From sequence record NZ_CP024587.1: a stretch of 64,000 nucleotides of DNA. One strand, written 5' to 3'. Below, in pieces: positions 6,332-43,014 of this stretch. Positions within the stretch are counted from its first letter, which is position 1, and the number at the start of each line of letters is the position of its first letter. The notes beneath the pieces were generated by a model, which searched no databases, was not told the origin of the DNA, and worked only from the letters and a program-made list of their open reading frames with translations. The translations under genes and the position numbers were made by a program. The DNA is from a plasmid.

Positions 6332-6338
6332 GGCTCCG

Positions 6339-12592: not shown

Positions 12593-12655
12593 GACAAGGG
12601 TGCGTCGGCTGGCGCCTCCCGCGCCGGGGCAGGCCCCGGCTGCGCCCTTGTCCCG
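12593..12655 (+). promoter_or_regulatory. Hairpin motif copy a (CAAGGGTGCGTCGG...GCGCCCTTG) upstream of the Toprim operon
   Basis: Core ends about 50 bp before ATG 12705. Shares the GCAAGGG/CCCTTGC stem with eight other copies. Confidence 0.45.
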
Positions 12656-12704
12656 CGTCCGTCTCGCGGTTGGCGGGTGGAATCACGGTGAAGGATTCCG
12701 AGGA

Positions 12705-13658
12705 ATGAGTGGCCCCGATGAGGAGTTGGATAGACTGAGGGAGGGCGTGAACTGTGCCGCCCTGCTGGAGCGCCTGCCGCCCCCCTGGAAGCTGGACAAG
12801 GCGGAAAGCACCCGGGACTGCCTGAAGTACCGGCGCGGCAAGGGTGAGATCATCATCGTCAACCATGGCGGCCAGGGCTGGTGGGACGCCGGGAGCACCG
12901 CCAAGGGCGATGTGTTCCGGCTGGTGCAGCACCTCCGGCCCGATCTGAACTTCGGCCATGTCCGCAAGCTGCTCCGCGAGATGGTCGGGTTGCAGCCGAG
13001 CTTTCCCGAGCACGAGCGGGTGCGTCCGCAAGGGGAGGGGAGCGTCCCACCCGCCATGCGCTGGGCTGCGGCGAAGTCTCTCCGTCCGGGATCGCGGGCC
13101 TGGGGCTACCTGGCCGAGGTCCGGCATCTGCCCTCTCCGGTGCTTCGGGCAGCGGCGGCGGCGGGCGCCCTCCGGGAGGGGGCCTACGGCACCGCCTGGT
13201 TCGCCCATCGCGACGAGAGCGGCACGCTGACAGGCTTCGACATGCGCGGGCCGGTGTTTCGCGGCTTCGCCAAGGGGGGCGAGAAGACCCTGTTCCGCCT
13301 GCCCGGCTGGATCCGCTCGCGGGAGGTGCTGCCGCACCGCCTGGCCGTGGCCGAGGCGCCGATCGACGCCCTGAGCCTCGCGGCGGTCGAACGACTGCGG
13401 GGCGACACCCTCTATGTCGCGACCAGCGGCGGCATGGGGCCTGGAACCGTCCGTGCCCTGGACCTTCTGCTGGCCGCCATGGCCGCCCTCCCGGATGCCT
13501 GCCTGGCCGTCGCCACCGACAGTGACCCACCCGGCGAACGCTACGCCGCCTTCCTGGGGGAGCGGGCCGCGGCGGCGGGCGTGCCCAGCGAGCGCTGCCT
13601 GCCACCGCACGGGCTGAACGACTGGAACGACGCCTTGCGACAGGGGAGGGGGGCATGA
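12705..13658 (+). CDS. DUF3991 + Toprim domain protein (primase-like), common in alphaproteobacterial ICEs
   Basis: 317 aa from MSGPDEEL with a GAGGA RBS. A Toprim-like acidic cluster (ATDSDPPGERY). Domain names recalled, not searched. Confidence 0.6.
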   Translation: MSGPDEELDRLREGVNCAALLERLPPPWKLDKAESTRDCLKYRRGKGEIIIVNHGGQGWWDAGSTAKGDVFRLVQHLRPDLNFGHVRKLLREMVGLQPSFPEHERVRPQGEGSVPPAMRWAAAKSLRPGSRAWGYLAEVRHLPSPVLRAAAAAGALREGAYGTAWFAHRDESGTLTGFDMRGPVFRGFAKGGEKTLFRLPGWIRSREVLPHRLAVAEAPIDALSLAAVERLRGDTLYVATSGGMGPGTVRALDLLLAAMAALPDACLAVATDSDPPGERYAAFLGERAAAAGVPSERCLPPHGLNDWNDALRQGRGA

Positions 13659-13990
13659 GCACCACCGAACGCGCGGCTCCGGCCCCGAGCCACGAAGCGT
13701 GGACCCTTGCACGGGCCCTGCACACCGCCTTTCTCCGGCTGCCCGACCGGCTGAGAGCCCGCTGCACGGTGCCGCCGACCGGGGATGCCGCGATCGACCG
13801 GCCGGTGCTGGTCGAGGCCTGCGACGGCTCCGACCACTACCGGGGCGTGGTGGTCGCGGGACAGCGCGACGAGAGCGGCCTCTGGTTGCTGGACGACGCC
13901 TTCACCCTGCTGACCCTCGACCACGACGACGGCCCCGAGGCCGCGCTTGTCGTCTGCCATGGATGGAACTGCCATGCCGACCGCATCTGA
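13655..13990 (+). CDS. Hypothetical protein, 111 aa, translationally coupled (ATGA) to the Toprim gene
   Basis: ORF in operon context. Confidence 0.4.
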   Translation: MSTTERAAPAPSHEAWTLARALHTAFLRLPDRLRARCTVPPTGDAAIDRPVLVEACDGSDHYRGVVVAGQRDESGLWLLDDAFTLLTLDHDDGPEAALVVCHGWNCHADRI

Positions 13991-16013
13991 CACCACAGAC
14001 CACGACCACCTGGTGGCCGGGCTGACCCCTGCCCAGGGAGAGGCGGCCGGGATGCACGGGCCGGTGCTGGTGCTGGCGGGAGCCGGAACCGGCAAGACCA
14101 AGACGTTGACCGCCGGCGTCGTGCTGCGGATCGCCGAGCGCGGCATCCCCGCCTCTCGCATCCTGGCCGTGACCTTCACCAACAAGGCCGCCAGTGAAAT
14201 GCGCGCCCGCATCGTCGCCCTGCTTGACGGCCAGGCGGCGCCATCCTGGATCGGCACCTTCCATGGTCTTGGCGCCCGCCAGCTTCGCCTGGAGCCGGAG
14301 ATGGCCGGGCTGCGCGAGGGTTTCGACGTGCTCGACGCCGACGACAGCCGGCGCCTGCTCAAGCGGATCATGAAGGCCCGAGGTGAGGATGCCGACAACG
14401 AGGGCATGGGCAGGGACCCGGTCAAGACCATCGCCGGACACATCGGACGCTTCAAGGACAACCTCATCACCCCGGGTGAGGCAGCGATCCGCGCCGAGGC
14501 GATGATTGCTGGAGACCGGATGGCCGACGCCTCCGGCCTGCGCGCCGCGGCGCGTGTCTACCCCGAGTATCAGCGGCGGCTGGTGGAGGCCAACGCCGCC
14601 GATTTCGGAGACCTGCTGCTCTGGCCGAGCGTGTGCATGGGACACGACGAGGAACGCCGGCAGCGCTTCGCCAGCCGCTTCTCCTGCATCCTGGCCGACG
14701 AGTACCAGGACGTGAATGCCGTGCAGTACCGATGGCTCCGGCTGATGGCCAGGGACCATGGCGAGATCTTCGCGGTCGGCGACGATGACCAGGCGGTGTT
14801 CGGCTGGCGCGGCGCGGACATCGAATACATCCGCCGCTTCACGCGCGACTTCCGGGATGCAGCCGTGGTGAAGCTGGAGGACAACTTCCGCTCCACCGGC
14901 CACATCCTCGCCGCGGCCAACGCGGTCATCGCGCGCGAGGACGGCCGCCTCGGCAAGACGCTGCGCCCTACCCGCGAGCAGGGCCAGCCCATCGAGGTGG
15001 TCAGGTTCCGCAACGACGAGGCCGAGGCTACCGGCATCGTGGCCGAGATCCGCAAGCGCGGCTCGGAGGGCGTGCTCTGGCACGACATGGCCATCCTGTA
15101 CCGAGCCAACCACCTGTCGCGCAACATCGAGGAGGAGCTGCTCCGCGCAAGGGTGCCCTATGTGCTGGTGGGCGATGTCGGCTTCTACCAGCGCGCCGAG
15201 ATCAAGGATGCCCTGGCACTGCTTCGCCTCGCCGCAAGCCCTGACGATGGCCAGTCCGACGAGGCCTTCCGGCGCGCCTGCAACACCCCACCCCGCGGCA
15301 TCGGCCCCAAGGCGCTCGATCTGCTGGAGCGCGACGCCGAATGGCGCGGCTCCTCGCTGCTCGCCGCCTGCCACACCGCGGATCTGCCGGCCAGGGTGCG
15401 GGGGGCGGCCGGAGCCTTCGCGGACGCCGTGCGTTCGGTCGCGGCCGACACCGGCGCCACGGTGGCCGACCGCCTGTCCATGCTGCTCGACCGGACCGGC
15501 TACCGACAATGGCTGCGCGACAGCCGCGCCGAGACGGTTGAGGGGCGCCTGGAGAACCTGGCCGAGCTGGTGCTGCTGGCCGGAGGCTTCCATTCGGCGA
15601 CCGACTTGCTGGAGCATGCCGCACTGGCCAGCGCCGCGCCGGGCGAGGAGGCCGGGGGGCGCGTCCAGCTGCTCACCCTGCATCGTGCCAAGGGGCTGGA
15701 GTTCGCTCATGTCTTCCTGCCGGCCTGGAACACGACGATCTTTCCGAGCCAGTACGGCGACGCGGCTGAGGAACGGCGCCTGGCCTATGTGGCGCTCACC
15801 CGCGGCAAGGAGCGGGTGGCGGTCAGTTATGCCGAGTTCCGCCGCGGCTACGTCGATCCGTCGCCCTTCCTCGACGACATCCCCGAAGCCAACCGGCATG
15901 AGGGATGGCTGCGCCCCCTGGAGCGGCGGCCGGCGCGACCCTCGCCCCGCCAGGCCGGCATGGACGCCCTCAACGAGATGCTCGCCGGCCTCCGTACCCG
16001 GCCAAGGGCATGA
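13947..16013 (+). CDS. uvrD: UvrD/Rep-family SF1 DNA helicase
   Basis: Walker A AGAGTGKTKT, RILAVTFTNKAASEM, motif II DEYQDVN and downstream SF1 motifs. 688 aa. Confidence 0.85.
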   Translation: MSSAMDGTAMPTASDTTDHDHLVAGLTPAQGEAAGMHGPVLVLAGAGTGKTKTLTAGVVLRIAERGIPASRILAVTFTNKAASEMRARIVALLDGQAAPSWIGTFHGLGARQLRLEPEMAGLREGFDVLDADDSRRLLKRIMKARGEDADNEGMGRDPVKTIAGHIGRFKDNLITPGEAAIRAEAMIAGDRMADASGLRAAARVYPEYQRRLVEANAADFGDLLLWPSVCMGHDEERRQRFASRFSCILADEYQDVNAVQYRWLRLMARDHGEIFAVGDDDQAVFGWRGADIEYIRRFTRDFRDAAVVKLEDNFRSTGHILAAANAVIAREDGRLGKTLRPTREQGQPIEVVRFRNDEAEATGIVAEIRKRGSEGVLWHDMAILYRANHLSRNIEEELLRARVPYVLVGDVGFYQRAEIKDALALLRLAASPDDGQSDEAFRRACNTPPRGIGPKALDLLERDAEWRGSSLLAACHTADLPARVRGAAGAFADAVRSVAADTGATVADRLSMLLDRTGYRQWLRDSRAETVEGRLENLAELVLLAGGFHSATDLLEHAALASAAPGEEAGGRVQLLTLHRAKGLEFAHVFLPAWNTTIFPSQYGDAAEERRLAYVALTRGKERVAVSYAEFRRGYVDPSPFLDDIPEANRHEGWLRPLERRPARPSPRQAGMDALNEMLAGLRTRPRA

Positions 16014-16065
16014 GGGAGCATAAAAGGTAAGGGAGGACGCGACGGCAGGGGAAGGAGATGGACTC

Positions 16066-16140
16066 TGTGCCACCCTCGGCCGGATCGCCGCAAGGGTGCG
16101 TCGGCTCACGCCTCCCGCCGCTGCGCGGCGCCCTTGCCCC
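16066..16140 (+). promoter_or_regulatory. Hairpin motif copy b (GCCACCCTCGGCC...CCGCAAGGGTGCGTCGG...GCGGCGCCCTTGCCCC)
   Basis: Ends 64 bp before GTG 16204. Confidence 0.45.
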
Positions 16141-16203
16141 GCTCCGCCCGGGGCGGCTGCGCGTGGGGGTCTTCGAGAAGAAGATCAGCAGGAGAGGCTA
16201 CCC

Positions 16204-17976: not shown

Positions 17977-18030
17977 GGAGGCGGATTCGAGAGGAGGGAA
18001 GGGAGAGGAACGAGGGGGCGGGGGAGGCCC

Positions 18031-18111
18031 TGCCACCCTCGGCCAGGACGCGGCAAGGGTGCGTCGCTCCGCTCCCGCCGCTGCGCGGCGCCCTTGCCCC
18101 GCCCCGGCCGG
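18031..18111 (+). promoter_or_regulatory. Hairpin motif copy c (same GCCACCCTCGGCC prefix as copy b)
   Basis: Ends 55 bp before ATG 18166. Confidence 0.45.
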
Positions 18112-18165
18112 GGCGGCCGGCGGGCTGGGTCTTCGGGAAGAAGACGCAGCAGAAGGAACGGGATC

Positions 18166-18339
18166 ATGGATCTCGCCGACCGCCTCGCCCGCCGCAAAGG
18201 ACGCCGCGAGGACCTCGCCGCCATCGCCGGCCTCCTCGCCTTCCTGGCCGCGATCCTGGCCATCGTGATCCTGCCCGGGTTCCTGGTGCAGAGCGCCTCC
18301 ACCAGCCGCGTGCCCGCCCAGCAGGAGGCGCGGCGATGA
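18166..18339 (+). CDS. Small single-pass membrane protein (57 aa)
   Basis: Hydrophobic stretch LAAIAGLLAFLAAILAIVILPGFLV. First gene after motif copy c. Confidence 0.35.
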   Translation: MDLADRLARRKGRREDLAAIAGLLAFLAAILAIVILPGFLVQSASTSRVPAQQEARR

Positions 18340-18698: not shown

Positions 18699-18754
18699 CG
18701 GGCGCGCCGCACCCTCCCGGCTGCCCCCACCATCCCCACCCGAAAGGAACCGCC

Positions 18755-19345: not shown

Positions 19346-19348
19346 ACC

Positions 19349-20155: not shown

Positions 20156-20195
20156 GCCGGCCCGTCCGACAACACCAGCAAGGAGGAGCCACGCC

Positions 20196-20576: not shown

Positions 20577-20610
20577 GGCAGGAGAGATGAGAGACAGGGA
20601 GGAGGGGCGT

Positions 20611-20680
20611 GCCGCACCCCGTCCCCCGCCGCAAGGGCAGGGGCCTGACGGCCCGCCGCTGCGCGGCGCCCTTGCCCCGG
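20611..20680 (+). promoter_or_regulatory. Hairpin motif copy d
   Basis: CCGCAAGGGCAGG...GCGGCGCCCTTGCCCC ending 50 bp before ATG 20730. Confidence 0.4.
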
Positions 20681-20729
20681 GGGCACGGGGCGCCGGCGAC
20701 AGGGGAGGTGTTCGGAAAGGAACACCGCC

Positions 20730-21077: not shown

Positions 21078-21087
21078 GGAGCCCCCC

Positions 21088-21366: not shown

Positions 21367-21405
21367 TCCGGTGATCCCGGAAGAAACGGGGCATCGGGAG
21401 AGCAG

Positions 21406-21500
21406 GGCCGTCCCGCACCGGGGACGGCCGCCGCAAGGGGCCGTCGGCTGGCGCCTCCCGCGCTGCGCGCGCCCTTGCCCCAGCCGCCCCGGATGCGGGT
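21406..21500 (+). promoter_or_regulatory. Hairpin motif copy e (extra 5-prime hairpin GGCCGTCCC-GCACC-GGGACGGCC plus core)
   Basis: Near-identical to copy f over about 90 bp. Ends 31 bp before ATG 21531. Confidence 0.5.
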
Positions 21501-21530
21501 TCGGGTCGCATCGCGAAAGGAGACAGGGCG

Positions 21531-21845: not shown

Positions 21846-21897
21846 GGCAGGCGGAGGAGAAGGAAACCAGCGGCAGAGAGAGGGGAGGGAGAGGCGA

Positions 21898-21990
21898 GCC
21901 GTCCCGCACCGGGGACGGCCGCCGCAAGGGTTCGTCGGCTGGCGCCTCCCGCGCTGCGCGCGCCCTTGCCCCGGCCGCCCCGGATGCGGG
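21898..21990 (+). promoter_or_regulatory. Hairpin motif copy f
   Basis: Ends 39 bp before ATG 22029 (ardC). Confidence 0.5.
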
Positions 21991-22028
21991 GGCGGGGAGG
22001 TGTTCCGAGAGAATGAAAGGGAACACCG

Positions 22029-24234: not shown

Positions 24235-25753
24235 TACGTAGTCGGCCTTGAACAACGTCTTCAGGCTGTCGCCCCTGCGAGCAGGGTGCGGCCTGTCGGG
24301 ACGCTGGCTTGGCTGATCGGGGTGAGGATTGCCTGTCGGAGGGCGGCGAGGAGAGCGGCCAAAAGGGCCCTGAGGTGGGCGAGGATCTTGCGGATGTTGT
24401 GGCCGCAGCCGCAGAGGACGGCGTAGAGAGCATCGCCGAGCGTGCCCTTGAGGGCGCAGCGGGCGAGGCGGCCATCGGTCTTCATGTGGCCGATCTCGGG
24501 CTCGATGGCGCTGCGGCGGCGGAGCAGCCGGCGCAGGCGGGGCGTGAGGCCGCGGCTGGTGCCGCTGACGAGCACCCTGGTTGCCGTGACGCCATGGCCG
24601 CGGTAGCCGCGATCGACCACGGCGAGGCTGGGACGCTGGCCGGTGAGGGTCTCGACCTGCTGGAGGGCGTCGGCGAGGGTGTGGCCGTCGTAGGGATTGC
24701 CGGGCTGGCTGCGCATGCCGACGACGAAGCCACCGGCGAGGGTGGTGGCGATGCTGACCTTCGTGCCGAACTCGTAGCGCACCCGCGCCTTGCCCTTGGC
24801 GATGCAGTCCACCTCGGGCTCGTGCAGGGCGTAGAGCTTGCGGGACGACTTCGGTGTCTGGAGCAGCAGGCGGGTGACGAGGGCGATGCGCTGCTCGATG
24901 CGCGCCCGCAGTGGCCCGTCAGGGACGGCGCCGAGCTTGCGTTCAACATCGCGCAGGATGCGGCCGGTGTAGCCCTTGAGCGTGCGCAACGCCTTGCGCA
25001 TGCGGCGGAACTGCCGGGCGTGGGCGTAGCGCCCCACCTGGCCGGCCAGGCGCGGCGCCAGGCGATTGTAGTTCTGGCGCAGGGCGATCCCGGCCTTGTG
25101 CGCCAGCGTCACCAGCGAGTGGCGGGCCCGCTCATAGAGGCGGCTGTCGGTCGGATGGGCGATGGCCTTCTCCATCACTGTGGTGTCCACTGCGATCTCG
25201 GCCAAGCTGTTCGACGTCACAGCTCCCGAAGCCTGAGCCGCCTCGATCGTCCTGGTCAGCAACCACTCGACACCTTCCTCACCGATGCGACCGCGCCAGC
25301 GGCTGAGAGAGGAGGGATGGATGGGCGCACGGTGCTGGAAGAAGGTCTCACCCGTGAAGTGCTGGAAGTACGGGTTCTCCACCCAGCGCGCGAGCACCGC
25401 CTCGTCGGAGAGGCCATGGGCGTGCTGGAGGTACATCAGCCCGGCGACCAGACGCGGATGCGTGGCCGGCCGTCCCTCAGCGGCGGGGAAGAAGCCGGCC
25501 CATTCCCGCTCGAACCAGGACCAGTCGATCAGCGCCGCCAGCCGCACCAGTTCGTGCCGCCCATCGATCATGTCGACCAGCCGCGGCCGCAGCAGATCGG
25601 CCTGTTCCGGCGGGCGCGGGCGGTGCTTCATGCCCACAAGATTCGCAGGGTTTGTCGTCGAAAACAATCGAACCCTGCAAATCCAGGTCGCCGAGCCCGG
25701 AAAATCTCACAGCTAGATCAGTGCCTTACGAGTTATTCAAGGCCGACTACGTA
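24235..25753 (-). mobile_element. IS5/IS1182-like insertion sequence, 1519 bp, 22-bp terminal inverted repeats TACGTAGTCGGCCTTGAA(C/T)AAC, no obvious target duplication
   Basis: IRs read directly at 24235-24256 and 25732-25753. One transposase ORF inside. Confidence 0.7.
24261..25667 (-). CDS. DDE transposase, IS5-family (IS1182-like)
   Basis: 468 aa. InsH-like N-terminal region (LLRPRLVDMIDGRHELVRLAALIDW) and a DDE-type C-terminal region. Family call is approximate. Confidence 0.7.
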   Translation of the reverse strand: MFSTTNPANLVGMKHRPRPPEQADLLRPRLVDMIDGRHELVRLAALIDWSWFEREWAGFFPAAEGRPATHPRLVAGLMYLQHAHGLSDEAVLARWVENPYFQHFTGETFFQHRAPIHPSSLSRWRGRIGEEGVEWLLTRTIEAAQASGAVTSNSLAEIAVDTTVMEKAIAHPTDSRLYERARHSLVTLAHKAGIALRQNYNRLAPRLAGQVGRYAHARQFRRMRKALRTLKGYTGRILRDVERKLGAVPDGPLRARIEQRIALVTRLLLQTPKSSRKLYALHEPEVDCIAKGKARVRYEFGTKVSIATTLAGGFVVGMRSQPGNPYDGHTLADALQQVETLTGQRPSLAVVDRGYRGHGVTATRVLVSGTSRGLTPRLRRLLRRRSAIEPEIGHMKTDGRLARCALKGTLGDALYAVLCGCGHNIRKILAHLRALLAALLAALRQAILTPISQASVPTGRTLLAGATA

Positions 25754-26381
25754 TTCTGCGCCGTCGTGCTCGTCTTCAACAACGCCCGGCAGGGCTTTGG
25801 CCGAAAGACCATGGACGAGAGCTGCGGCCCCTGTGAGGTCGACTGCCCGGCCCGGATCATGGCGCTGCTCTCGCCGATCGAGGACATCCCCAATCCTGGC
25901 TACGCAGCGGATTGGCGCGCACGGGTCGCCGCGGCGGCGGCCTTGCGCCGCGAGGCGACCGCCAGCGGCCGGAACCTCGATCCCGGACAGCGGATCAGCC
26001 TTACCCAGCAGATCAGCTTTGACGGCGGGCGGGTCGTCACGAGCGAGTTCGAGGTCGTGCCGACGCCGCCCGGCCGGCGCGGGCCGATCTTCCGGCCCGT
26101 GGGGCACGACTTCCTTTGCCGGGTGCCCCGTCACCTCCTAGCCACGGCGATGCACGTCGCGGGCGGCGCCGCTGACACAGCATCCCGGAGCATGCCGTGA
26201 TCGCCCAGGCGGAGGTCCGGGACGGCAACACCAGCGAGGCGGGCCTGCGCCGCCTACGCCAGTCGGAGAGGACCGAGGCGTACCGGCGGATGGTGCTCAT
26301 CCTCACGGTCGGCAGGAGCGAGACACAACCCGACCTGCTGCTGCCGTGACAGCGGGGCCAGCGTCTAAGCCTCCTGAAAGC

Positions 26382-26640
26382 CTGCAAGCCTGCAAGCCTG
26401 AGTTCGGGAAATCCCGAAAGAGGGAAAGCAGGAAAGCAGGAACGAGAGAATCAGGGGCGAGAAGCTGCTGGCATCCCGGCCGTCCCGGCACCGCTGCGCT
26501 CCATGGCCGGCAGCGCAACCCAGCCCGTCTGGGCCGCAACCCTGCGGGCCGCGTCCTGCGCCGGCCAGGGCCGCTCCCCGGCCATGGTGCCGGCCCGCCC
26601 GCGCTGCCCGCGGCGGAGGGGTCATAGGAACAGACCCACA
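26382..26640 (+). promoter_or_regulatory. Regulatory cassette B: direct repeats (CAAGCCTG x2; GGAAAGCA x2-3), IR TTCGGGAAATCCCGAA, then a ~170-bp GC-rich leader paralogous to 32676-32850
   Basis: Read directly. About 75% identity to cassette C by eye. Confidence 0.5.
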
Positions 26641-29800: not shown

Positions 29801-31968
29801 CCTTCAAGTTCATCGCCGCCCCGGCCGCGTTCGAGCGTGGTCTCGTACAGGACCAGCTCGATGCCTACGCGGCCCTGCTGGAGAAGCTCGATGGCGACGA
29901 CCGCATCGCCCGCAAGCGCATCGAGCGCATGAAGGAAGGCATGCAGGAGAAGCTCGAAGCGCTCGCCTCGGCCAAGGACGACATGCTGACCATCGCCGAG
30001 ATGGGCGTCGACCAGGTGATCGCCGACGAGGCACAGGAGTTCCGGAAGCTCTCCTTCGCCACCAACATGGGCAACCTCAAGGGCATCGCCCCGGACGGCT
30101 CGCAGCGCGCCTGGGATCTGTTCGTGAAGTCACGCTTCGTGGCGACCGTGAACCCGGGCCGGGCGCTGATCCTCGCCTCCGGCACTCCCATCACCAATAC
30201 CCTGGGCGAGATGTTCACCCTGCAGCGCTTCATGCAGCCGGAGATGCTGGAGGAGCGCGGCATCCAGGAGTTCGACGCCTGGGCCGCCAACTTCGGGGAC
30301 ACGCGCACCGAGCTGGAGCTGCAGCCCTCGGGCCTCTACAAGCCGGTGACCCGCTTCTCGGAGTTCGTCAACGTCGCCGACCTGATCGCCATGTTCCGCT
30401 CGGTCGCGGACGTCGTGCTCAAGGACGACCTGCGCCAGTACCTGAAGCTGCCCGCCATCCAGGGCGGCCGGCGCCAGATCGTCACCGCCCCCGCCAGCCC
30501 GGCCTTCCGGGACTACCAGAGCGCCCTCGCGGCGCGCATCAAGGCCATCGAGGCGCGCAAGGGCAAGCCCCAGAAGGGCGAGGACATCCTGCTCTCGGTC
30601 ATCACCGATGGCCGCCATGCCGCCATCGACCTGCGTTTCGTCGTGGCGGAGGCGGAGGATGACCCCGGCAACAAGCTCAACGCGCTGATCGACAACGCCT
30701 TCCGCATCTGGTCGGAGACGCGCGGCAAGGTCTTCCGCAACCCGGACGGCACGCCGCACCCGACCCCCGGTGCCACGCAGATGATCTTCTCCGACCTCGG
30801 CACCGAAGGGGCAGCGGCGACGCGGGGCTTCTCGGCCTACCGCTGGATCCGGCAGCGCCTGATCGGCCTCGGCGTGCCGGCCGAGCGCATCGCCTTCATG
30901 CAGGACTACAAGAAGGCCGAGGCCAAGCAGGGCCTGTTCACCAAGCTGAACAACGGCCAGGTGGATTTCCTGCTCGGTTCCTCGGCCACCATGGGAACGG
31001 GGGTGAACGCCCAACGCCGGCTGGTGGCGCTGCATCACCTCGACGTGCCCTGGCTGCCCTCCGAGATCGAGCAGCGCGAGGGCCGTATCGAGCGGCAGGG
31101 CAACCAGAACGACGAGATCGGCCTCTACGCCTACGCGACCCTGGGCTCGATGGACGCCCAGATGTGGCAGAACAACGAGCGCAAGGCGCGCTTCATCGCG
31201 GCGGCGCTGGGCGGCGACCGCTCGATCCGCCGGCTGGAGGATATCGGCTCCCAGGCGAACCAGTTCGCGATGGCCAAGGCCATCGCCTCGGGCGACCCCC
31301 GCCTGATGCAGAAGGCTGGGCTGGAGGCCGAGATCGCCCGGCTGCAGCGCCAACGGGCGGCGCATTTCGACGACCAGCACGCGGTGCGGCGGCGCGTCGC
31401 CGAGGCGCGCTCGGCCATCGGCCGTGCCACCCAGGCCATCACCGACACCGAGGCGGACCTCGCGCGCCGGGTATCGACCCGGGGCGAGGAGTTCCGCATG
31501 GAGGTGCAGGGCAGGACCTTCGCCGAACGCAAGGAGGCGGGGGCCGCACTGCTGAGGATCCTGCGCACTGTGCAGTTCGAGGGCCGCCAGGGCGATTGGG
31601 AGCTCGGCGCGGTCGGCGGCTTTCCGCTGACGCTGGAGGCCCGCCGTTACCGCCAGGGGGCCGATCTGGACATCCACCTGCTGCTGGGCCGCGCCTACGG
31701 CCAGCAGGAGATCCAGGTGGAGGACGACCTGTCCGCGCTCGGACTGGTGGCCCGGCTCGAATACGCCCTGGGACGCTTCGAGGCGGAATTGGCCGGGCAC
31801 CGGCGGGACCTGGAGGAAGCCGAGCGCCGGCTGCCGGCCTACCAGGCCCGGCTGGGCGACGCCTTCGAGTTCCAGGCCGAGCTGGATGCCAAGCTGGCTG
31901 AAATGCAGGCACTGGAGGCGGATCTGGCGCAGAGTGGCAAGGAGGAGGCGGTTGCCGCGGCGGCATGA
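26851..31968 (+). CDS. Large fusion protein: N6-adenine DNA methyltransferase (NPPF) + SF2/SNF2-like helicase; phage P1 DarB-like antirestriction candidate
   Basis: 1705 aa. MTase motif I EPGCGTGLF and motif IV LGNPPF. Helicase GAGKT, DEAQ, ASGTP and QREGRIERQG. The alternative start is ATG 26896 (MAKAKSS). Confidence 0.85.
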   Translation: MGRRAAAHARSGTRAMAKAKSSLDQLSLFDTTALTSFSLDGGGFGTLLPPLDATEEEPDDAPIAPAVPRVVAHDFRLAGDRGLASSWKARAAGNLAAIRLMQRIEAETRPATAEEQAVLARFVGYGASDLANALFRRPGEAWREGWAEQGDGLEQAVSAAELASLARCTQYAHFTPEYVVRAVWAGLTRLGFRQGSILEPGCGTGLFLALRPEGMADCSTVTGIEMDTVTARIAALLHPKAWIRQEDFTRARIPETFDLALGNPPFSDRTVRADDPAGKLGLKLHDYFIARAVERLKPGGLAAFVTSHGTLDKVDPKAREHIAGMADLVGAIRLPAGSFAAAAGTDVVVDILFLQRRERGAEPNGVEWAHLAEVVPAEAGEAAIHVNAWFAAHPETVLGRHGWTTGPFGLAYDCARDGRDLDAALAEAVARLPQGIHQPPADAVAARPARTAARAGTAAEGATIKEGSYLIGEGGVLLQVVDGTAEPVAVKSGKGTVGLFAKHARIIRGLIPVREAVRGVIRAQEADQPFGAAQVRLRAAYGSFVRAFGPINLTNISTSTDEETGEVRETVRRPNLQPFLDDPDCWLVSSIEEYDPETGTARKGPIFTERVIHAPAEPMIVSAADALAVTLAERGVVDLAHACDLLGRDRETVLAELGDTVFLDPDLTTEGFEAWQTADEYLSGQVRRKLAAARAAATLDARYARNVVALERVQPEDLRPSDITARLGAPWIPARDVAAFIQEVIGVETPVRHTVEVAHWSIDVHRFVGLASATSEWGTHRRHAGELLDDALNASIPQIWDVWRDAEGEHRQLNAQETEAVKDKLAKIKDAFERWVWTDSDRAERLVRLYNDAFNSLVPRHFSGEHLQLPGASTVIQLRPHQKRVVWRIVASGQTYVAHAVGAGKTFTIAAAIMEQKRLGLISKAMLAVPGHCLAQASREFLQLYPGARILVADETNFSKDKRARFLARAATANWDCIIITHSAFKFIAAPAAFERGLVQDQLDAYAALLEKLDGDDRIARKRIERMKEGMQEKLEALASAKDDMLTIAEMGVDQVIADEAQEFRKLSFATNMGNLKGIAPDGSQRAWDLFVKSRFVATVNPGRALILASGTPITNTLGEMFTLQRFMQPEMLEERGIQEFDAWAANFGDTRTELELQPSGLYKPVTRFSEFVNVADLIAMFRSVADVVLKDDLRQYLKLPAIQGGRRQIVTAPASPAFRDYQSALAARIKAIEARKGKPQKGEDILLSVITDGRHAAIDLRFVVAEAEDDPGNKLNALIDNAFRIWSETRGKVFRNPDGTPHPTPGATQMIFSDLGTEGAAATRGFSAYRWIRQRLIGLGVPAERIAFMQDYKKAEAKQGLFTKLNNGQVDFLLGSSATMGTGVNAQRRLVALHHLDVPWLPSEIEQREGRIERQGNQNDEIGLYAYATLGSMDAQMWQNNERKARFIAAALGGDRSIRRLEDIGSQANQFAMAKAIASGDPRLMQKAGLEAEIARLQRQRAAHFDDQHAVRRRVAEARSAIGRATQAITDTEADLARRVSTRGEEFRMEVQGRTFAERKEAGAALLRILRTVQFEGRQGDWELGAVGGFPLTLEARRYRQGADLDIHLLLGRAYGQQEIQVEDDLSALGLVARLEYALGRFEAELAGHRRDLEEAERRLPAYQARLGDAFEFQAELDAKLAEMQALEADLAQSGKEEAVAAAA

Positions 31969-31976
31969 CTGTCCAT

Positions 31977-32016: not shown

Positions 32017-32113
32017 TCGGCCGCGAGGCGCTTGAAGCAGGCAGAGGAGGAGGAACGGGTACGTCTCGTCAGCGCGCGGCGGGCGACCAGGGCGGAACGG
32101 AGGGCCTACGAGG

Positions 32114-32398: not shown

Positions 32399-32616
32399 CT
32401 CGGCCTTGGACCGGCCGTGCAAAAAGAAAGGCGGCGCCCGAGGGTGCCGCCCAAGTTTAGGGAGGAAACGTCCAAGTAAGGCGGCAACCCAGCGGGTGCC
32501 GTGTCGCCGCACCCCGCACCATGACCCAGGCTGCCCTTCGGGTCCAATCAAATGACGCGCCGCAGCAGAACGGGCCGAGCCGGTGTCCTCGTGCTCCGCT
32601 CTCATGCCTGGGATGT

Positions 32617-32850
32617 TGGAAAGCCGGAAAGCCGGAAAGCGGGAAATCGGGAAACACGGAAAGCGGGGGAGAGGAGGAGCAGGAGCGCTGGCATCCGGGC
32701 ACCGCCCGGCACCGCTTCGCTCCACGGCCGCCTGCGCAGCCCTGCCCCGCTGGGCCGCAGCCCGCCCTGCCGGGCTGGGCCGCGTCCGGCGACGGGTCAG
32801 GGCCGCTCGCCCGCCGTGGTGCCGGACGGCCCCCGGCCGCCGGCGTGGGA
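32617..32850 (+). promoter_or_regulatory. Regulatory cassette C: six tandem 8-bp repeats GGAAAGCCG/GAAAGCGG/GAAATCGG/GAAACACG then a ~170-bp leader paralogous to cassette B
   Basis: Read directly. Confidence 0.5.
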
Positions 32851-32906
32851 GGGGTCAGCCCAGGAATGGGGTGACGGGAACCCCGGTCCGGAGAGCCACT
32901 CTCGCC

Positions 32907-34673: not shown

Positions 34674-34742
34674 CACCGCAAGCCTGGTCGCATGGCCGAC
34701 GCCCTGGGAAGGCTGAGAAGCGGACGCAGGACACGAAGGCCC

Positions 34743-34840
34743 CTGCCGCATCCGTCCCCCGGCGGCAAGGGTGCGTCGCTGCGCTCCCTCGCTCCGCTCG
34801 CCCTTGCCCCCGGCGGTCCGGAACGCGGCGGCTGGGGAGG
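34743..34840 (+). promoter_or_regulatory. Hairpin motif copy g (CCGCATCCGTCCCCCGGCGGCAAGGGTGCGTCG...CGCCCTTGCCCCCGGCGG)
   Basis: Near-identical to copy h. Ends about 20 bp before ATG 34861. Confidence 0.5.
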
Positions 34841-34860
34841 GATCAAAGTAGGAGAAAGCC

Positions 34861-35058
34861 ATGCGCGCGAGCGAAACCGAACTCGACCGCCTCTGGAACA
34901 GGTGCGCGAGCCTCGCCAACGACCTGGAGGAAGGTCTGTGGTCCATGTTTCCGCGGGAATGGGAAGACATCGCCGGGAAACTGGATGAACTGCTGGGCGA
35001 GATGGAGGAACTGTCTCCGTCCAGACGCCAGACATTCGCGGAAAGCCTCGGCCGCTGA
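34861..35058 (+). CDS. Hypothetical acidic protein, 65 aa
   Basis: GGAGAAAG RBS. Confidence 0.4.
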   Translation: MRASETELDRLWNRCASLANDLEEGLWSMFPREWEDIAGKLDELLGEMEELSPSRRQTFAESLGR

Positions 35059-35213
35059 CACGCACCCGGCGCCCTAGGCGGCGCCGGGCCCTCCTTGCTC
35101 CCTCGCAAGCACCAATACGAGTGCGCGCCCTTGCGGCGCGCGCCGCGTGATCCACGCATGCCCGGCATCCAGCCGGGCCCCCCTTTCCACGATAATCAGA
35201 ACGAGGTGGCCCA

Positions 35214-35510
35214 ATGGCCTTCATCAGCGTTGCCACGCGAGGCTCGGAATCCGAGCCGTTCCAGCTCTCCGGCAAGAACCCGATCCAGCACACGCCGGGT
35301 GCCTGCGAGAGCCACGACCGCTTGTTCGAGTATGCCGGAGGCCACCTGGGCTTCTACGGCTTCCTGCGCGTCGCCAACGCCCGCATCTCCCGGCGCCTTG
35401 GGATCGGGCTGGCGGATCTGCCGGACCGGCTCTGGCGGGATGCCTACGACGACGAGGCGCACCCTTCCGAAGCCGCCGACGAGGCGATCGAGGAAGAAGC
35501 CGGCGAATAG
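35214..35510 (+). CDS. Hypothetical protein, 98 aa, acidic C-terminus
   Basis: ORF with a plausible RBS (GAGGTGG). Confidence 0.4.
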   Translation: MAFISVATRGSESEPFQLSGKNPIQHTPGACESHDRLFEYAGGHLGFYGFLRVANARISRRLGIGLADLPDRLWRDAYDDEAHPSEAADEAIEEEAGE

Positions 35511-35523
35511 GAGCGGAGGGAGC

Positions 35524-35624
35524 GCTGCCGCATCCGTCCCCCGGCGGCAAGGGTGCGTCGCTGCGCTCCCTCGCTCCGCTCGCCCTTGCCCCCGGCGGCC
35601 CGGAACGCGGCGGCTGGGGAGGGT
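35524..35624 (+). promoter_or_regulatory. Hairpin motif copy h
   Basis: About 95% identical to copy g over about 95 bp. Confidence 0.5.
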
Positions 35625-35693
35625 CGAGGAGAAAGCGGCCGGCAAGGCCGGGGCCACCTCGGCATCCCGAATCCCTGATGGGAGTTGAGCAAT

Positions 35694-36392
35694 ATGGACA
35701 CCCTGGTTGAGCGCGCCCTGCGCTCGGCAGCCGAGGATCTCGGCCTTTCGCCCGATGGATGGAGCCGGATCCGGGGCGATTCCGGCACGAGCCAGGCCTT
35801 CCGGCACACCGCCCGCCCCGCCCTGGTGGTCGAGGTGAGCATGGATGGGCCCGGATGGAGCTGGACGGCCAGCCTGGCGAAGTCGCATCGCCAGCCCGCC
35901 CTTGGTCCTGCCCAGCCCTGGGCGTGCATCGACGGCCTTGCCGTCCGGGTCAGCCCCAGCCAGCGCGGGGCGCTCCTCGATGCCCTGGCGATCGCCGGCG
36001 ACAACATCGCGGAGGCCAACGCCTGCTCGACCGCGATGCTGCAGACCCGCCTGGACGTGCTGGTCAGCCGTCGCGGTTTCGACCTGTTCGTCGCCCCCGT
36101 GCAAAACCTCGACAGGAGGCAGGCCGAGCCGGCTGCCCCGCTGCGCCTGGATTGGAGCTACCGAGGGCAGACGCCGGACGGCGACGACGTCGCGGGCGTC
36201 GTTCAGGGCGCAGACGAGGCCGAGGCCATCGAGGCGGTCGAGCGCCTCTGGGCCGGCCTCGACCTCATGGAGCTATCACCACGCCTCGCCGGGCTGGCGC
36301 CCTTGTCCTCCGCTGCCCGCCGCTTGGCCGAAGATGGATTGCGGCAGGCGGGAGCCCAGGGGCCCGCATCGGGTCTGCCCGCGCTGCACTGA
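35694..36392 (+). CDS. Hypothetical protein, 232 aa
   Basis: ORF with a GGAG RBS. Followed by a strong palindrome. Confidence 0.4.
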   Translation: MDTLVERALRSAAEDLGLSPDGWSRIRGDSGTSQAFRHTARPALVVEVSMDGPGWSWTASLAKSHRQPALGPAQPWACIDGLAVRVSPSQRGALLDALAIAGDNIAEANACSTAMLQTRLDVLVSRRGFDLFVAPVQNLDRRQAEPAAPLRLDWSYRGQTPDGDDVAGVVQGADEAEAIEAVERLWAGLDLMELSPRLAGLAPLSSAARRLAEDGLRQAGAQGPASGLPALH

Positions 36393-36424
36393 TCCTCCCA
36401 CCCCCCGAAACAGCCATCGGCATC

Positions 36425-36458
36425 GCGAACGGCAGGGCCTGGGCCCTGCCGTTCGCGT
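36425..36458. terminator. Perfect hairpin GCGAACGGCAGGGCC-TGG-GGCCCTGCCGTTCGC followed by GTTT; terminator of the upstream gene and/or operator of the MTase gene
   Basis: Read directly. Only a short T-tract. Confidence 0.35.
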
Positions 36459-36475
36459 TTCAGGAGCCCCGCGCC

Positions 36476-38284
36476 ATGATTTCCGAGCACGGCCACGCCA
36501 CCATTCTGCACGCCCACCTCTTCGCCGGCCTCGGCGGAGGTGCCCGCGGCTTCAACCGCGCCACCTCGCGGGTGGGCAACCTCACCGCCAGCTTCCGCTG
36601 CCTCGGCGGCATCGACGTCGACGCCGGGGCGATCCGCGACTTCGGCCGCCTCGCCGGTGTGCCCGGCACCTGCATGGACCTGTTCGACCGCGAGCAGTAC
36701 CGCGACTTCCACGGCCAGGAGCCACCGATCGGCTGGCGCGAGGCCACCGTGGACGATGTGCGCGCCGCCTTCGGCCACGAACGCCCCCACGTCCTGTTCA
36801 CCTCGCCACCCTGCAAGGGCTTCTCCGGCCTGCTCAGCGAGACCAAGAGCAGGACCCGGAAATACCAGGCGCTGAACCGCCTGACGCTGCGCGGCATCTG
36901 GCTGGCGCTGGAGGCCTATCGCGACGATCCGGTGGAGCTGATCCTGCTGGAGAACGTGCCGCGCATCGCGTCGCGCGGGCGTCCCCTGCTCGACCGGATC
37001 ACCGGCCTGCTACGCGCCTATGGCTACGCCGTGGCCGAGACCACCCATGATTGTGGGCAGTTGGGTGGCCTGGCGCAGTCGCGCCGCAGGTTCCTGCTGG
37101 TGGCCCGCCACACCGCCAAGGTGAAGCCCTTCCTCTACCAGCCGCCGAAGCGCCCGCTGCACGGCGTGGGGGACATTCTTTCCCGGATGTCCCTGCCGGG
37201 CGATCCGGCGGCCGGGCCGATGCACCGGGTCCCGATGCTGCACTGGTCCACCTGGGTCCGGCTCGCCTTCGTCGAGGCCGGAAGCGACTGGCGTTCCCTC
37301 GGCAGGCTCAAAGTCGAGGACGGGATGTTGCGCGACTACGCCCTTGCCCCCTGCGGCGAATGGCGCGGCGGCGTTCTCGGCGTGAACCGCTGGGACGAGC
37401 CGTCCGGCACCGTGGCGGGCCGTTCCGGTCCCTCCAACGGCGCCTACAGTGTCGCCGACCCGCGCCGCGCCGAAGGCGTGGCCGCCTTCGGGCAGTACGG
37501 GGTCAAGCGCTTCGACGAGCCGTCCCAGGTGGTGATCGGCAAGGCCGCGGTCGGGGCCGGCCATTTCGCCGTGGCCGATCCTCGCCACGCCGGGCCGCCC
37601 AAGCACAGCAACGAGTTCCGCATCGTCCCCTGGGACGGGGCCGGACGGGCGGTCACAGGCGCCCATGGCACCGGCCAGTGCGTGGCGGATCCGCGCGGAG
37701 ACGTGCGCCGCTCCGGAGCGCTGGGCGTCGTGTCGTGGGAGTCCAATGCCGGCACCGTGGCGGGTGAGAGCCTGCCATCCAACGGCACCTTCGCGGTCGC
37801 CGATCCCCGGCCGCGCCTGGAACGGGAGAAGGGTGACGACTACTACGGCGCCGGCCATTACGGCGTGGTGCCGTGGCGGGAGCCCACGGGTGCCGTCAGC
37901 GCCGCCGCCGGCTACGACAACGGCCGCTGGAGCGTGGCGGACCCCCGCCCGATCCTGCCCAGCGCGACCGAGAAGGTCGTGGCCCGCATCCGCGCCCTCG
38001 ACGGCACCTGGCACCGGCCTTTCACCACCGCCGAGCTGGCGGCGCTGCAATCGTTGTTCGACCCGGAGGAGCAGGCCGAGCTGGACGGGCTGAGCGATGC
38101 CGACTGGCGCGAGCGCATCGGCAACGCCGTCCCGCCCGACGCCGCGCAGGCCATCGCCGAGACGATGGGCCGCACGCTCCTGCTGGCCTGGTCGGGCGAG
38201 GGCTTCATGCTCTCGGCCCTGCCGATCTGGGTACGTCCGGTCGCGGTGGCCCTCTCCGTACGCCAGCCCCAGGACGAGGCCTGA
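36476..38284 (+). CDS. dcm: DNA (cytosine-5) methyltransferase with an unusually repetitive variable (TRD) region
   Basis: Motif I LFAGLGGGARGF, motif IV PPCKGFS, motif VI ENV, motif VIII QSRRRF, motif X GNAV. Between VIII and X are five roughly 40-aa repeats, each ending in VADPR. Confidence 0.85.
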   Translation: MISEHGHATILHAHLFAGLGGGARGFNRATSRVGNLTASFRCLGGIDVDAGAIRDFGRLAGVPGTCMDLFDREQYRDFHGQEPPIGWREATVDDVRAAFGHERPHVLFTSPPCKGFSGLLSETKSRTRKYQALNRLTLRGIWLALEAYRDDPVELILLENVPRIASRGRPLLDRITGLLRAYGYAVAETTHDCGQLGGLAQSRRRFLLVARHTAKVKPFLYQPPKRPLHGVGDILSRMSLPGDPAAGPMHRVPMLHWSTWVRLAFVEAGSDWRSLGRLKVEDGMLRDYALAPCGEWRGGVLGVNRWDEPSGTVAGRSGPSNGAYSVADPRRAEGVAAFGQYGVKRFDEPSQVVIGKAAVGAGHFAVADPRHAGPPKHSNEFRIVPWDGAGRAVTGAHGTGQCVADPRGDVRRSGALGVVSWESNAGTVAGESLPSNGTFAVADPRPRLEREKGDDYYGAGHYGVVPWREPTGAVSAAAGYDNGRWSVADPRPILPSATEKVVARIRALDGTWHRPFTTAELAALQSLFDPEEQAELDGLSDADWRERIGNAVPPDAAQAIAETMGRTLLLAWSGEGFMLSALPIWVRPVAVALSVRQPQDEA

Positions 38285-38443
38285 GCGCCATGCACCCCAC
38301 ACCATCCATCCCCTGCCGCCGGACCTGGCAGCGGATCCTGCACCGCCACAGCCATCGTGCCCCGCCGAAACTGGGGCACCGGCGTCGCAGCCAAGGGTCC
38401 GGCCGGGGCACAGCCTGCCGGCAGGACGGCGAGCGGCCTAGCC

Positions 38444-38995
38444 CGCCGCGGCGCGGATCCGGGCGAGATCGAGGACGCCCTTCGCGCCCCAGCCCTTCGT
38501 CCCGGCTGCCACCTCCGGGCGGAACTGCTCATAGAGCCGGAAGGCCACCCGGTTCAGCTCATCCGGATCCAATGTGGCCGCCAACTCCTCCATCGCCTTC
38601 CTGACCGGCGCCAGATCCTCCCCGAAGGCCCTCCGGACATACCCGGCTGCCGCCTGCGCGGACGCCGGCTTGTCGTGATCGAGCGCGCGTAGCGACCCAT
38701 CCACCTCGACCACCGGCAGGTCGCGGCCGAGCAGATGCACCGCCTTCTGCCGATGCCTCCCCTGACCCTGCTTGCGCGCCTCGTCACGCAGGTCGCCGCT
38801 CTCATGCCCCTCCTCGGCGATGCCGATGGACTTCGCCTTCGCGCGGGCACTGAGGCCGGCGACGGCCCGGCCAAGCGTGATCGCCGTTTCGGGGTCATGC
38901 CCCAGGCGCTCGGCCACCACCGCGGCCCAGAGCGTCAACACCGGCGCCCGGTTCACCTGGACCGTCGGCCCCGCCTTCGTCCCGGTCATGCGCGT
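38444..38995 (-). CDS. Hypothetical protein, about 183 aa (MTGTKAGPTVQVNRAPVLTLWAAV...)
   Basis: The C-terminal part of a long reverse frame looks genuinely coding. The start is chosen at the first plausible Met. Upstream of that the frame runs antisense to another gene and is rejected. Confidence 0.35.
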
Positions 38996-39118
38996 CCATC
39001 CCATCCATCCCGCTCGCCTCAACGAGCGAGCGGCGGGACGGATGCGCCACGCCGGCTTCCACCATCCCGGCCATTGGCCGAGCCGGCGCCTCGCGGATTC
39101 CGGGGCAGAGCCAACACC

Positions 39119-39613
39119 ATGAAGATCGAACTCCGCAGTGTCAGCTACAACGCCGCCCTGAGCGAGGAGACGATGAACTTCCACGCCGACATCTGGATCG
39201 ACGGGAGGAAGGCGGGCTTCGCCCATAACCACGGGACCGGCGGCAACACCAACGTGCAGCCCAACACCCTGCGCCAGCGCCTCGACGAGTACGGCAGGAC
39301 TCTCCCGCAGGTGGACATCGGGACCGCCACGGGCGGCGAGCCGCGCATGATCACCCAGGACGCCGAGTGGATCGTGGACAGCCTCCTGACGGAATGGATC
39401 GTGCGGCGTGACCTGAAGCGGGCACTGAAGAACCGCGTCCTCTACACCCACACGGAGATGCCCGGGGTCTACCAGACCAAGGTGCTGAAACCGGACGAGA
39501 TGGCGAAGATCCTCGCGTCGACGGAGGTGAAAGCAAAGTGGAAGGTCAAGGCTTGGCTGAACACCATGCCGGAAGAGGAGGCCATCGCCATCTACCGGAA
39601 CAACGGTCGCTGA
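39119..39613 (+). CDS. Hypothetical protein, 164 aa, noticeably lower GC than its neighbours
   Basis: MKIELRSVSYNAALSEETMNFHADIWIDGRKAGFAHNHGTGGNT... Codon usage differs from the flanking DNA. Confidence 0.45.
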   Translation: MKIELRSVSYNAALSEETMNFHADIWIDGRKAGFAHNHGTGGNTNVQPNTLRQRLDEYGRTLPQVDIGTATGGEPRMITQDAEWIVDSLLTEWIVRRDLKRALKNRVLYTHTEMPGVYQTKVLKPDEMAKILASTEVKAKWKVKAWLNTMPEEEAIAIYRNNGR

Positions 39614-39642
39614 AACGCGCACGAGGGCAGGACGGAAGATGG

Positions 39643-39735
39643 CTGCCGCATCGTGGCGTCCGCCGCAAGGGAAGGCGGCTGCGCCGCCCGCGCGAAGCGC
39701 GCGCCCTTGCCCCGGCCGCCGCCGTCGCGGCCGGC
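39643..39735 (+). promoter_or_regulatory. Hairpin motif copy i (CTGCCGCATCGTGGCGTCCGCCGCAAGGG...GCGCGCCCTTGCCCCGGCCGCC)
   Basis: Followed by a 12-codon mini-ORF (39756-39794) and then the gene at 39826. Confidence 0.45.

Positions 39736-42525: not shown

Positions 42526-43014
<489 letters not shown>

Follow-up and report, generated by a model that had tools for sequence, protein, structure and literature searches.

What do nine similar hairpins do when each stands just ahead of a gene, all of them facing the same way? We address this question for a 64,000-nucleotide stretch of plasmid DNA (record NZ_CP024587.1; hereafter the window, with a G+C content of about 70%), in which nine copies of a GC-rich hairpin each lie upstream of a plus-strand gene. 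Our reading of the sequence is that they are single-strand hairpin promoters, carried on the transferred minus strand and active before its conversion to duplex DNA; we give it a probability of roughly 60%. A preliminary description of this DNA had pointed out the nine elements and left two explanations side by side: promoters of the Frpo/ssi kind ahead of anti-defence genes in a plasmid leading region, or operators of a single regulator encoded by an integrative and conjugative element (ICE).

Nine hairpins and their placement

A covariance model built from the nine copies (R1) was run with filters off over the 64-kb window on both strands; it recovers precisely the nine, at 44.4–83.5 bits (E-values of 1e-14 to 1e-6); the next match scores 21 bits. 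A broader model (R2) finds the same nine. All share one orientation between 12.5 and 39.7 kb, and neither model places a copy elsewhere in the window. The core sequence GCAAGGGKGCG, with at most one mismatch, occurs 21 times, against 9.0 ± 2.9 times in shuffles. The copies are listed with their R1 scores and the gene that each precedes, an open reading frame (ORF) in the absence of a name.

Copy a, 12568..12676, minus strand: 55.4 bits; upstream of the DUF3991-Toprim gene, start 12705.
Copy b, 16062..16164, minus strand: 73.8 bits; upstream of the GHKL ATPase gene (Pfam), GTG 16204.
Copy c, 18025..18126, minus strand: 66.8 bits; upstream of a small ORF, ATG 18166, the first in a block of unknown genes.
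Copy d, 20609..20700, minus strand: 44.4 bits; upstream of a Zn-finger gene (ATG 20730) and the DUF5983 gene.
Copy e, 21402..21509, minus strand: 75.2 bits; upstream of the DUF4326 gene, ATG 21531.
Copy f, 21899..21995, minus strand: 83.5 bits; upstream of ardC, ATG 22029.
Copy g, 34740..34836, minus strand: 77.3 bits; upstream of a small ORF, ATG 34861.
Copy h, 35524..35614, minus strand: 80.2 bits; upstream of an ORF starting at 35694 and the C5-methylase gene.
Copy i, 39640..39737, minus strand: 64.9 bits; upstream of a small ORF, ATG 39825.

From copy a to copy i, the model match ends 26, 38, 40, 25, 23, 30, 23, 74 and 85 nt ahead of the start codon. The nine positions of the preliminary description hold, and so does its remark that no copy precedes a minus-strand gene. 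Its outline of the element has to be redrawn: each copy is an imperfect hairpin of 91–109 nt, larger than the core described there, with boundaries that had been misread, and the supposed extra hairpin of e and f is in fact the 5' arm of their outer stem.

From base to apex, the hairpin consists of a variable outer stem, a small internal loop (G.G on the minus strand), an invariant 7-bp GCAAGGG/CCCTTGC helix and an apical part, as a rule split into two mini-hairpins. The outer stem varies in sequence by subfamily and keeps its complementarity. Copies g and h are identical at 96 of 100 positions (96%), e and f at 95 of 103 (92%). GNA triloops were expected at the minus-strand apex and were dropped as evidence, being present in only 20 of 45 distinct apexes, with one subfamily carrying GAA on the plus strand. 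An IS6 insertion in a sister plasmid (L004 13963-14072) has removed the 3' arm of one copy.

The stem is supported by covariation. Across 47 distinct sequences from at least 10 genera, 89.1% of the alignment cells are paired, compared with 72.5% in shuffles and 33–59% in slid controls; compensatory, double-sided changes occur at 21 of 28 pairs, and the observed values were reached in none of 500 shuffles. This bears directly on the operator explanation, in which the hairpins would be duplex-DNA sites of one plasmid-encoded repressor or activator and would define its regulon. An invariant inverted repeat, GCAAGGG...CCCTTGC, does stand ahead of many genes. Its half-sites, however, are 23–73 nt apart with variable spacing, a further 25–30 outer-stem base pairs covary while their sequence is free, and the boxes stay conserved among plasmids that differ in backbone and mobilization (MOB) type; the strong strand asymmetry described in the next section would be meaningless for a duplex site. 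Given the covarying stems and the spacing of the boxes, we therefore reject a duplex operator as scarcely conceivable. Nor are the hairpins intrinsic terminators, because they have no U-tract; their tails are G/A-rich, and no copy is called as a terminator.

Every hairpin is preceded on the plus strand by a purine-rich tract of about 30–40 nt (77% purine on average, GGAGGGAGAGG-like; for example 21858-21897 and 17985-18024), whose composition is conserved across genera. On the minus strand both flanks of the hairpin are pyrimidine-rich (77% and 70%), so that they do not pair with each other and a fork is kept at the stem base. The upstream tract may have this very role, or it may serve the loading of SSB.

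Four annotated sister plasmids have 30 copies, every one of them intergenic and on the same strand as the genes. Of these, 24 lie 22–45 nt ahead of the next annotated start, the upstream stop being anywhere from 9 to 296 nt away. Several copies come after divergently transcribed genes; the hairpin thus goes with the gene that follows it and can stand at the head of a transcription unit. On a complete plasmid of 137.9 kb, all nine copies fall within one 26-kb block (71.4–97.6 kb), on one strand and co-oriented with mobF. The Roseomonas plasmids that were scanned over the whole leading block have 7–10 copies, and pTiC58 has two in the 50 kb around tra and the origin of transfer (oriT), at NC_003065.3 116792-116925 and 119135-119228; pGOX1 has copies at 26040-26139 and 30383-30496.

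Selfish or recombinational repeats, whether REP/REPIN- or MITE-like elements that move as single-stranded DNA or module-shuffling sites of the attC kind, would explain why some copies in one plasmid are near-identical (the pairs e/f and g/h), why the gene content between copies differs among sister plasmids, and why the structure forms in single-stranded DNA. The placement of the copies makes this very improbable. In the complete 138-kb plasmid, 100% of them have one orientation and are confined to the leading block; the dispersal in both orientations and independently of gene starts that characterises REP/BIME-like elements is seen neither there nor in the window. Orthologous copies stand upstream of the same genes from Acetobacteraceae to Rhizobiales, which favours long-term vertical conservation over mobility. 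The conserved boxes are inner ones, whereas the R and L boxes of attC are outer, and the spacing follows the downstream gene rather than the upstream one, unlike that of a site at the 3' end of a cassette. Gene order is syntenic across genera, and neither an integron integrase nor a RAYT gene is present among the ORFs scanned, which were a part of all ORFs.

Megablast of the segment gives 94.5% identity to plasmid 1 of Roseomonas gilardii U14-5 and 82–95% to many R. mucosa plasmids. The ICE of the preliminary description is therefore replaced by a MOBF conjugative megaplasmid of Roseomonas, and by its sequence the window is the leading (establishment/anti-defence) region of this plasmid. Two genes serve as landmarks.

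42526..43014, plus strand: ssb (Pfam SSB, 1e-33), a leading-region marker.
53871..56993 (53.9–57.0 kb), plus strand: TrwC/MobF relaxase gene (Pfam TrwC, 3e-41), annotated as mobF in a sister plasmid.

The relaxase gene is co-oriented with the genes headed by hairpins. Pfam and ORF scans identify, on the plus strand, imuA, imuB and dnaE2 at one end (3–9.6 kb), genes for DUF3991-Toprim, a UvrD-type helicase, the GHKL ATPase, small unknowns, DUF5983 and DUF4326, and further ones for ArdC, a 1705-amino-acid N6-methylase/SNF2 helicase, a ParB_N protein, a C5-methylase and SSB. All copies lie within this block of ssb, ardC, methylase and ParB genes, a location that they share with promoters of the Frpo/ssi type. 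The same gene block is found in pTiC58, likewise directed at oriT and the relaxase.

The strand that folds

We compared the two strands on a strand-neutral, anchored alignment of the stems of 43 non-redundant copies, from which the conserved loop was excluded. Seen on the minus strand, mismatches are purine-purine in 75 cases and pyrimidine-pyrimidine in 11. G.T pairs number 60 on the minus strand and 34 on the plus strand, and the stem arms are G-rich on the former. Folding with DNA parameters makes the minus strand the more stable one in 40 of 48 copies. The G.T counts taken from the union of minimum-energy folds (49 versus 45) or from a loose stem alignment (74 versus 65) are uninformative, the asymmetry being visible only in the anchored, non-redundant alignment.

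A larger hairpin of the same region gives the clearest evidence for the minus strand as the folding strand.

42228..42484, minus strand: hairpin of 257 nt, 41 nt upstream of ssb, Frpo-like in size and position.

In the window, its folding energy is -89 kcal/mol on the minus strand versus -69 kcal/mol on the plus strand, with 9 G.T pairs versus 1. The minus strand is more stable by 15–22 kcal/mol in all five plasmids compared; its G.T pairs outnumber those of the plus strand by 9–10 to 1 in three of them, by 3 to 2 in another and by 5 to 1 in the last. Altogether, covariation supports a long imperfect hairpin, and mismatch type, G.T count and energy favour the minus strand, which is most likely the strand that folds.

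As a rule, relaxase genes are located in the lagging region, and the T-strand is the template of leading genes (PMC11541004). By the orientation of the relaxase gene, the minus strand would be the transferred one. We infer the polarity in this way since the nic site was not located: in the search for oriT, no R388-like nic motif was found, and a search for inverted repeats gave nothing decisive. A candidate for the relaxosome-binding or oriT region is nonetheless at hand.

53290..53368, no strand assigned: 7.2 copies of an 11-nt tandem repeat, GCATCGGGCGA, upstream of the operon of a small ORF and the MobF relaxase.

Promoter-like positions on the minus strand

In the minus-strand hairpin, the arm on the side of the gene would serve as template. 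Its partner, the 3' arm, would take the place of the non-template strand; we follow it from apex to base and number it from the first T of its invariant TTG. Of 49 distinct arms in the Acetobacteraceae-centred set, 46 have an A at position 25 or 26, and in all 14 Rhizobiales arms it is at 26; overall, the spacing from TTG to A is 25–26 nt in 60 of 63 distinct arms. The base that precedes the A is C (29) or T (11). In a promoter with a 17–18-bp spacer, the same interval separates -35 from -11, and the -35 box of the Rhizobiales copies reads TTGACG. In minimum-energy folds, TTG is paired in 49 of 52 copies and position -12 in 47, while the A is unpaired in 36; in seven of the nine window copies, it is opposite C as an A.C mismatch.

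The promoter consensus measured in Gluconobacter oxydans is ttGnnn-16-23-nAtnnn, in which the G of the -35 and the A of the -10 element are conserved and the base before this A is t (40%) or c (39%) (PMC5756330). G. oxydans is itself a host of the hairpin family, and the TTG-N-[C/T]A of the hairpins fits its consensus, a very lax one.

The 3' arm of the plus strand has no A at this position, neither in the nine window copies, where it is mostly G, nor in the seven Rhizobiales copies read (G or C); in copy a, T12572 is the complement of the invariant A. A promoter directed at the gene would therefore be whole only when the minus strand is folded. The preliminary description had proposed to look for hexamers that arise only upon folding; promoter-like positions of a specific form are seen, with TTG in the paired core and the -11-like A on the minus arm only.

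A further element lies between the hairpin and the gene.

22001..22028, plus strand: short second hairpin (GGTGTTCC...GGAACACC) between hairpin f and the ardC start, carrying the Shine-Dalgarno region.

It has the form GGTSTTC-loop-GAASACC, with a compensatory change between GGTCTTC/GAAGACC and GGTGTTC/GAACACC. Its equivalents come after copies a–d, after the ssb hairpin and after copies in distant genera. With the invariant A taken as -11, the predicted transcription start falls on the first bases of this short hairpin. Counted as about 10–12 nt past the position opposite the A, the 5' ends predicted for copies a to i would be near 12683, 16170, 18130, 20710, 21511, 22002, 34841, 35623 and 39744.

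We propose the following mechanism. The transferred minus strand would fold while it is single-stranded in the recipient, each hairpin then imitating a duplex promoter. The invariant CCCTTG(C/A) box, paired with GCAAGGG, would act as a double-stranded -35 element, followed by a spacer of about 17–18 imperfectly paired positions and by the near-invariant [C/T]A near the stem base, which would represent positions -12/-11; its A, usually mismatched or unpaired, would be already flipped out. The host RNA polymerase would begin some 10 nt beyond it, where the short second hairpin with the ribosome-binding site has its foot, and would read the minus strand into the downstream gene, be it that of DUF3991-Toprim, the GHKL ATPase, ArdC, DUF4326, a methylase or a small unknown. 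Synthesis of the complementary strand would abolish the hairpin, and the rightward duplex, without its -11 A, would end the expression. The short RNAs may also prime complementary-strand synthesis, as was proposed for Frpo (PMC12672017).

Published start-site maps bear on this scheme. That of pGOX1 in vegetative G. oxydans has no start at the hairpin copies, and that of pTiC58 in vegetative A. fabrum C58 has no plus-strand start anywhere in 109–139 kb; no start upstream of the copies was detected in either map. No canonical sigma-70 promoter of the E. coli type and no terminator was found at any copy or in 12–23 kb, nor was promoter-like sequence found in the purine-rich upstream tracts. The missing vegetative starts are compatible with a single-strand promoter, and they are not proof of it.

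The maps and the strand asymmetry also weigh on another explanation, in which the hairpins act in plus-strand RNA below conventional promoters, as elements of a 5' untranslated or intercistronic region for RNase III-type processing, for stability, or as sites of a regulator or antiterminator. Such a role would suit long, near-perfect hairpins that separate co-oriented genes and keep a fixed distance from start codons, and plus-strand RNA folds strongly, at -58 to -82 kcal/mol. Covariation alone cannot separate RNA from DNA, and the plus-strand T that complements the invariant A forms a T.G (in RNA, U.G) wobble in seven of the nine copies. Other observations are at odds with it. On the plus strand the 75 purine-purine mismatches would become C.C, C.U or U.U, against 11 of the opposite kind; there are fewer G.U pairs (34 versus 60), and the energy is higher in 40 of 48 copies. 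The missing U-tract excludes terminators, the copies after divergent genes are not intercistronic, and conventional promoters are sought in vain in the two maps and the upstream tracts. Rfam 15 has no hairpin match at gathering score over the window, and none even at E≤1 over 12.5–22.1 kb. We regard an RNA element as unlikely.

Similarly unlikely are priming sites without a promoter role, at which the DUF3991-Toprim enzyme or the host primosome would start discontinuous synthesis of the complementary strand. Several copies spread over 27 kb of the presumed transferred strand suit the lagging-type synthesis of a strand that enters 5'-first. In most plasmids examined, from Acetobacteraceae to pTiC58, a copy directly precedes the DUF3991-Toprim gene, and primer RNA has been proposed for Frpo too. 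Priming gives no reason, however, for a spacing of 22–45 nt to the start codon while the distance to the upstream stop varies, nor for a conserved leader hairpin with a ribosome-binding site downstream; the invariant positions coincide with the -35 and -11 of the host promoter consensus, and the two copies of pTiC58 in 50 kb are too few for general priming. A priming role is compatible with a dual function, as primer and promoter. On this line, the hairpins of alphaproteobacterial plasmids, Ti included, might even be cognate sites of DUF3991-Toprim, with priming and the first mRNA start coupled at operon heads; we put this forward very tentatively, as a doubtful possibility. If true, DNA conversion and early gene expression would be mechanically coupled.

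Several points weigh against single-strand promoters. The putative -10 element amounts to [C/T]A, lacking both a T at -7 and a TATAAT, and the consensus that it matches is very permissive. The CCCTTGA box might also match an RpoH-type -35 element. The A is paired with T in the minimum-energy folds of 16 of 52 copies, and the wobble formed by its plus-strand complement could equally be a conserved U.G of RNA. As duplex, TTG-N-[C/T]A would point leftwards, in antisense; no such starts appear in the two published maps, though expression there is low. A repressed or quorum-controlled conventional promoter would likewise leave no vegetative start. The polarity of transfer leans on the orientation of the relaxase gene, and the search for nic was without result. 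The proposed function is deduced from sequence. Finally, the geometry is not general to the hairpins of the region: it is not consistently present in the ssb hairpin, in other pTiC58 intergenic regions searched, or in a second and longer hairpin family with a shared beginning, CCGGCACCGCTNCGCTCCAYGGCCG.

26480..26640, minus strand: second hairpin family, upstream of the N6-methylase/SNF2-helicase gene (26851), beginning with CCGGCACCGCTNCGCTCCAYGGCCG.
32700..32860, minus strand: second hairpin family, upstream of the ParB_N gene, with the same beginning.

Relation to known systems, distribution and meaning

Of the two explanations in the preliminary description, Frpo/ssi-like promoters ahead of leading-region anti-defence genes are the one best supported by the computation, and its interpretation is partly supported overall. 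To call them a new regulatory system was an overstatement, since single-strand promoters of leading regions are established (PMC11541004, citing Masai & Arai 1997; PMC12672017). In pESBL/F, 5' rapid amplification of cDNA ends verified a hairpin promoter at the head of each of six leading-region operons, and three classes of single-strand promoter were mapped by the same technique; these enterobacterial promoters were reported to be poorly active in S. meliloti (PMC12672017).

The present hairpins resemble Frpo1-2 of F, ssi1-3 of ColIb-P9 and classes 1-3 of pESBL in being imperfect hairpins of the (here presumed) transferred strand in the leading region (PMC11541004, PMC12672017). In both cases, several per plasmid each head an operon, upstream of ssb, anti-restriction and methylase genes that are templated by this strand. 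In the known promoters, -35 and -10 are reconstituted in a stem; the present stems carry putative counterparts. A burst of expression ahead of duplex conversion is proposed for the known ones and, in our case, predicted from sequence. They differ in size, about 100 nt and -40 kcal/mol versus windows of about 300 nt below -75 kcal/mol. The present family is GC-rich with a forked apex, reduces the -10 to [C/T]A with a mismatched A, reaches up to 9–10 copies per plasmid and has alphaproteobacterial hosts.

No sequence similarity to Frpo/ssi is detectable, as a blastn search of one copy (word size 11) against 72,556 plasmids returned 32 records, all from Acetobacteraceae (Roseomonas, Gluconobacter, Komagataeibacter, Lichenicola and Novacetimonas) and none from an enterobacterial plasmid. 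In the literature searched, these hairpins of alphaproteobacterial plasmids are nowhere described. The family is thus a new one of a known kind: non-homologous, about one third the size, GC-rich, multi-copy and fitted to a different promoter consensus.

Folded single strands that mimic a promoter and are read by the host RNA polymerase, in a strand- and orientation-specific manner, are also known from ori(-) of M13/f1 and from ssoA of rolling-circle plasmids. They share this principle with our proposal; they differ in yielding a short replication primer, in not standing ahead of genes, in occurring once per replicon and in having no sequence relation. The ssiA and ssiB sites of RSF1010, used with RepB', are short conserved hairpins on single-stranded plasmid DNA beside a plasmid-encoded primase, and thus resemble hairpins that co-occur with a plasmid Toprim/primase-type enzyme. 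They are only about 40 nt long, lie in oriV, one per strand, and are not close to genes, whereas the present family keeps to one strand, at 22–45 nt from start codons, and has promoter-like invariant positions. The intercistronic RNase III sites of phage T7 are alike in arrangement: some ten similar hairpins, each between genes of one orientation and regularly spaced from the start codon. They act in the coding-strand RNA, in contrast to the mismatch and wobble asymmetry seen here, which favours the non-coding DNA strand.

The covariance model extends the family beyond the BLAST matches to Rhodopila, Acidocella, Caulobacteraceae and Rhizobiales contigs. The hairpin precedes DUF3991-Toprim and DUF1419 genes in Methylocella, Roseibium, Bradyrhizobium, Rhizobium, Bosea, Shinella and pTiC58, on plasmid backbones of the MOBF, MOBP and MOBQ types; orthologues of copy a precede its gene, DUF3991-Toprim, in at least 10 genera. 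A scan of a genome collection with a loose pattern gave about 12 true loci among the matches listed, which shows presence in other genera and not distribution.

Some observations concern the surrounding genes. The imuA-imuB-dnaE2 error-prone polymerase cassette (window 3023-9581) forms the distal end of the leading block, co-oriented with it, and is syntenic from Roseomonas plasmids to pTiC58 (segment L138 6282-11726). An IS5-family (DUF772/DDE) insertion interrupts the leading block of the window at 24261-25667, on the minus strand. Within the leading region, 32414-32489 (minus strand) matches suhB/mmgR, an alphaproteobacterial small RNA family of Rfam (RF00519), with 57.2 bits, the gathering score being 41; the match is flanked by the methylase-helicase and ParB genes and runs antiparallel to them. 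In pTiC58, the homologue of the N6-methylase/SNF2-helicase gene is ATU_RS23500 (L138 17457-22538, 5082 nt), labelled 'lactate dehydrogenase' in the record, which is probably a mis-annotation. A strong hairpin at window 48035-48200 (-52 kcal/mol on the minus versus -41 on the plus strand) is directly followed by a 40-nt AT-rich island (GGTTGACTAATTATAAAGATTATG...), set against the 70% G+C of the rest of the plasmid, just ahead of the ORF 48194-49534.

The leading block encodes both a UvrD-type helicase (13947-16013) and the primase-like DUF3991-Toprim protein (12705-13658). Host UvrD is reported to promote the single- to double-strand conversion of incoming plasmids (PMC12672017), and the plasmid may therefore carry conversion machinery of its own.

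Promoters of single-stranded DNA are experimentally documented only in enterobacterial IncF and IncI plasmids, and elsewhere were found mainly by likeness to five known sequences. The present family is compact, supported by covariation and searchable by a covariance model. Its members stand ahead of genes for anti-restriction, methylases and primase-like proteins, both in Acetobacteraceae plasmids, with Roseomonas from human skin and industrial Gluconobacter and Komagataeibacter among the hosts, and in Rhizobiales plasmids of the Ti, Ri and symbiosis types. If our reading is true, these hairpins would be minimal single-strand promoters of about 100 nt, with the key -11 adenine pre-exposed by a mismatch, and the question would be directly testable in pTiC58 or pGOX1. 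They would then explain how leading genes are expressed on entry across a whole bacterial class.

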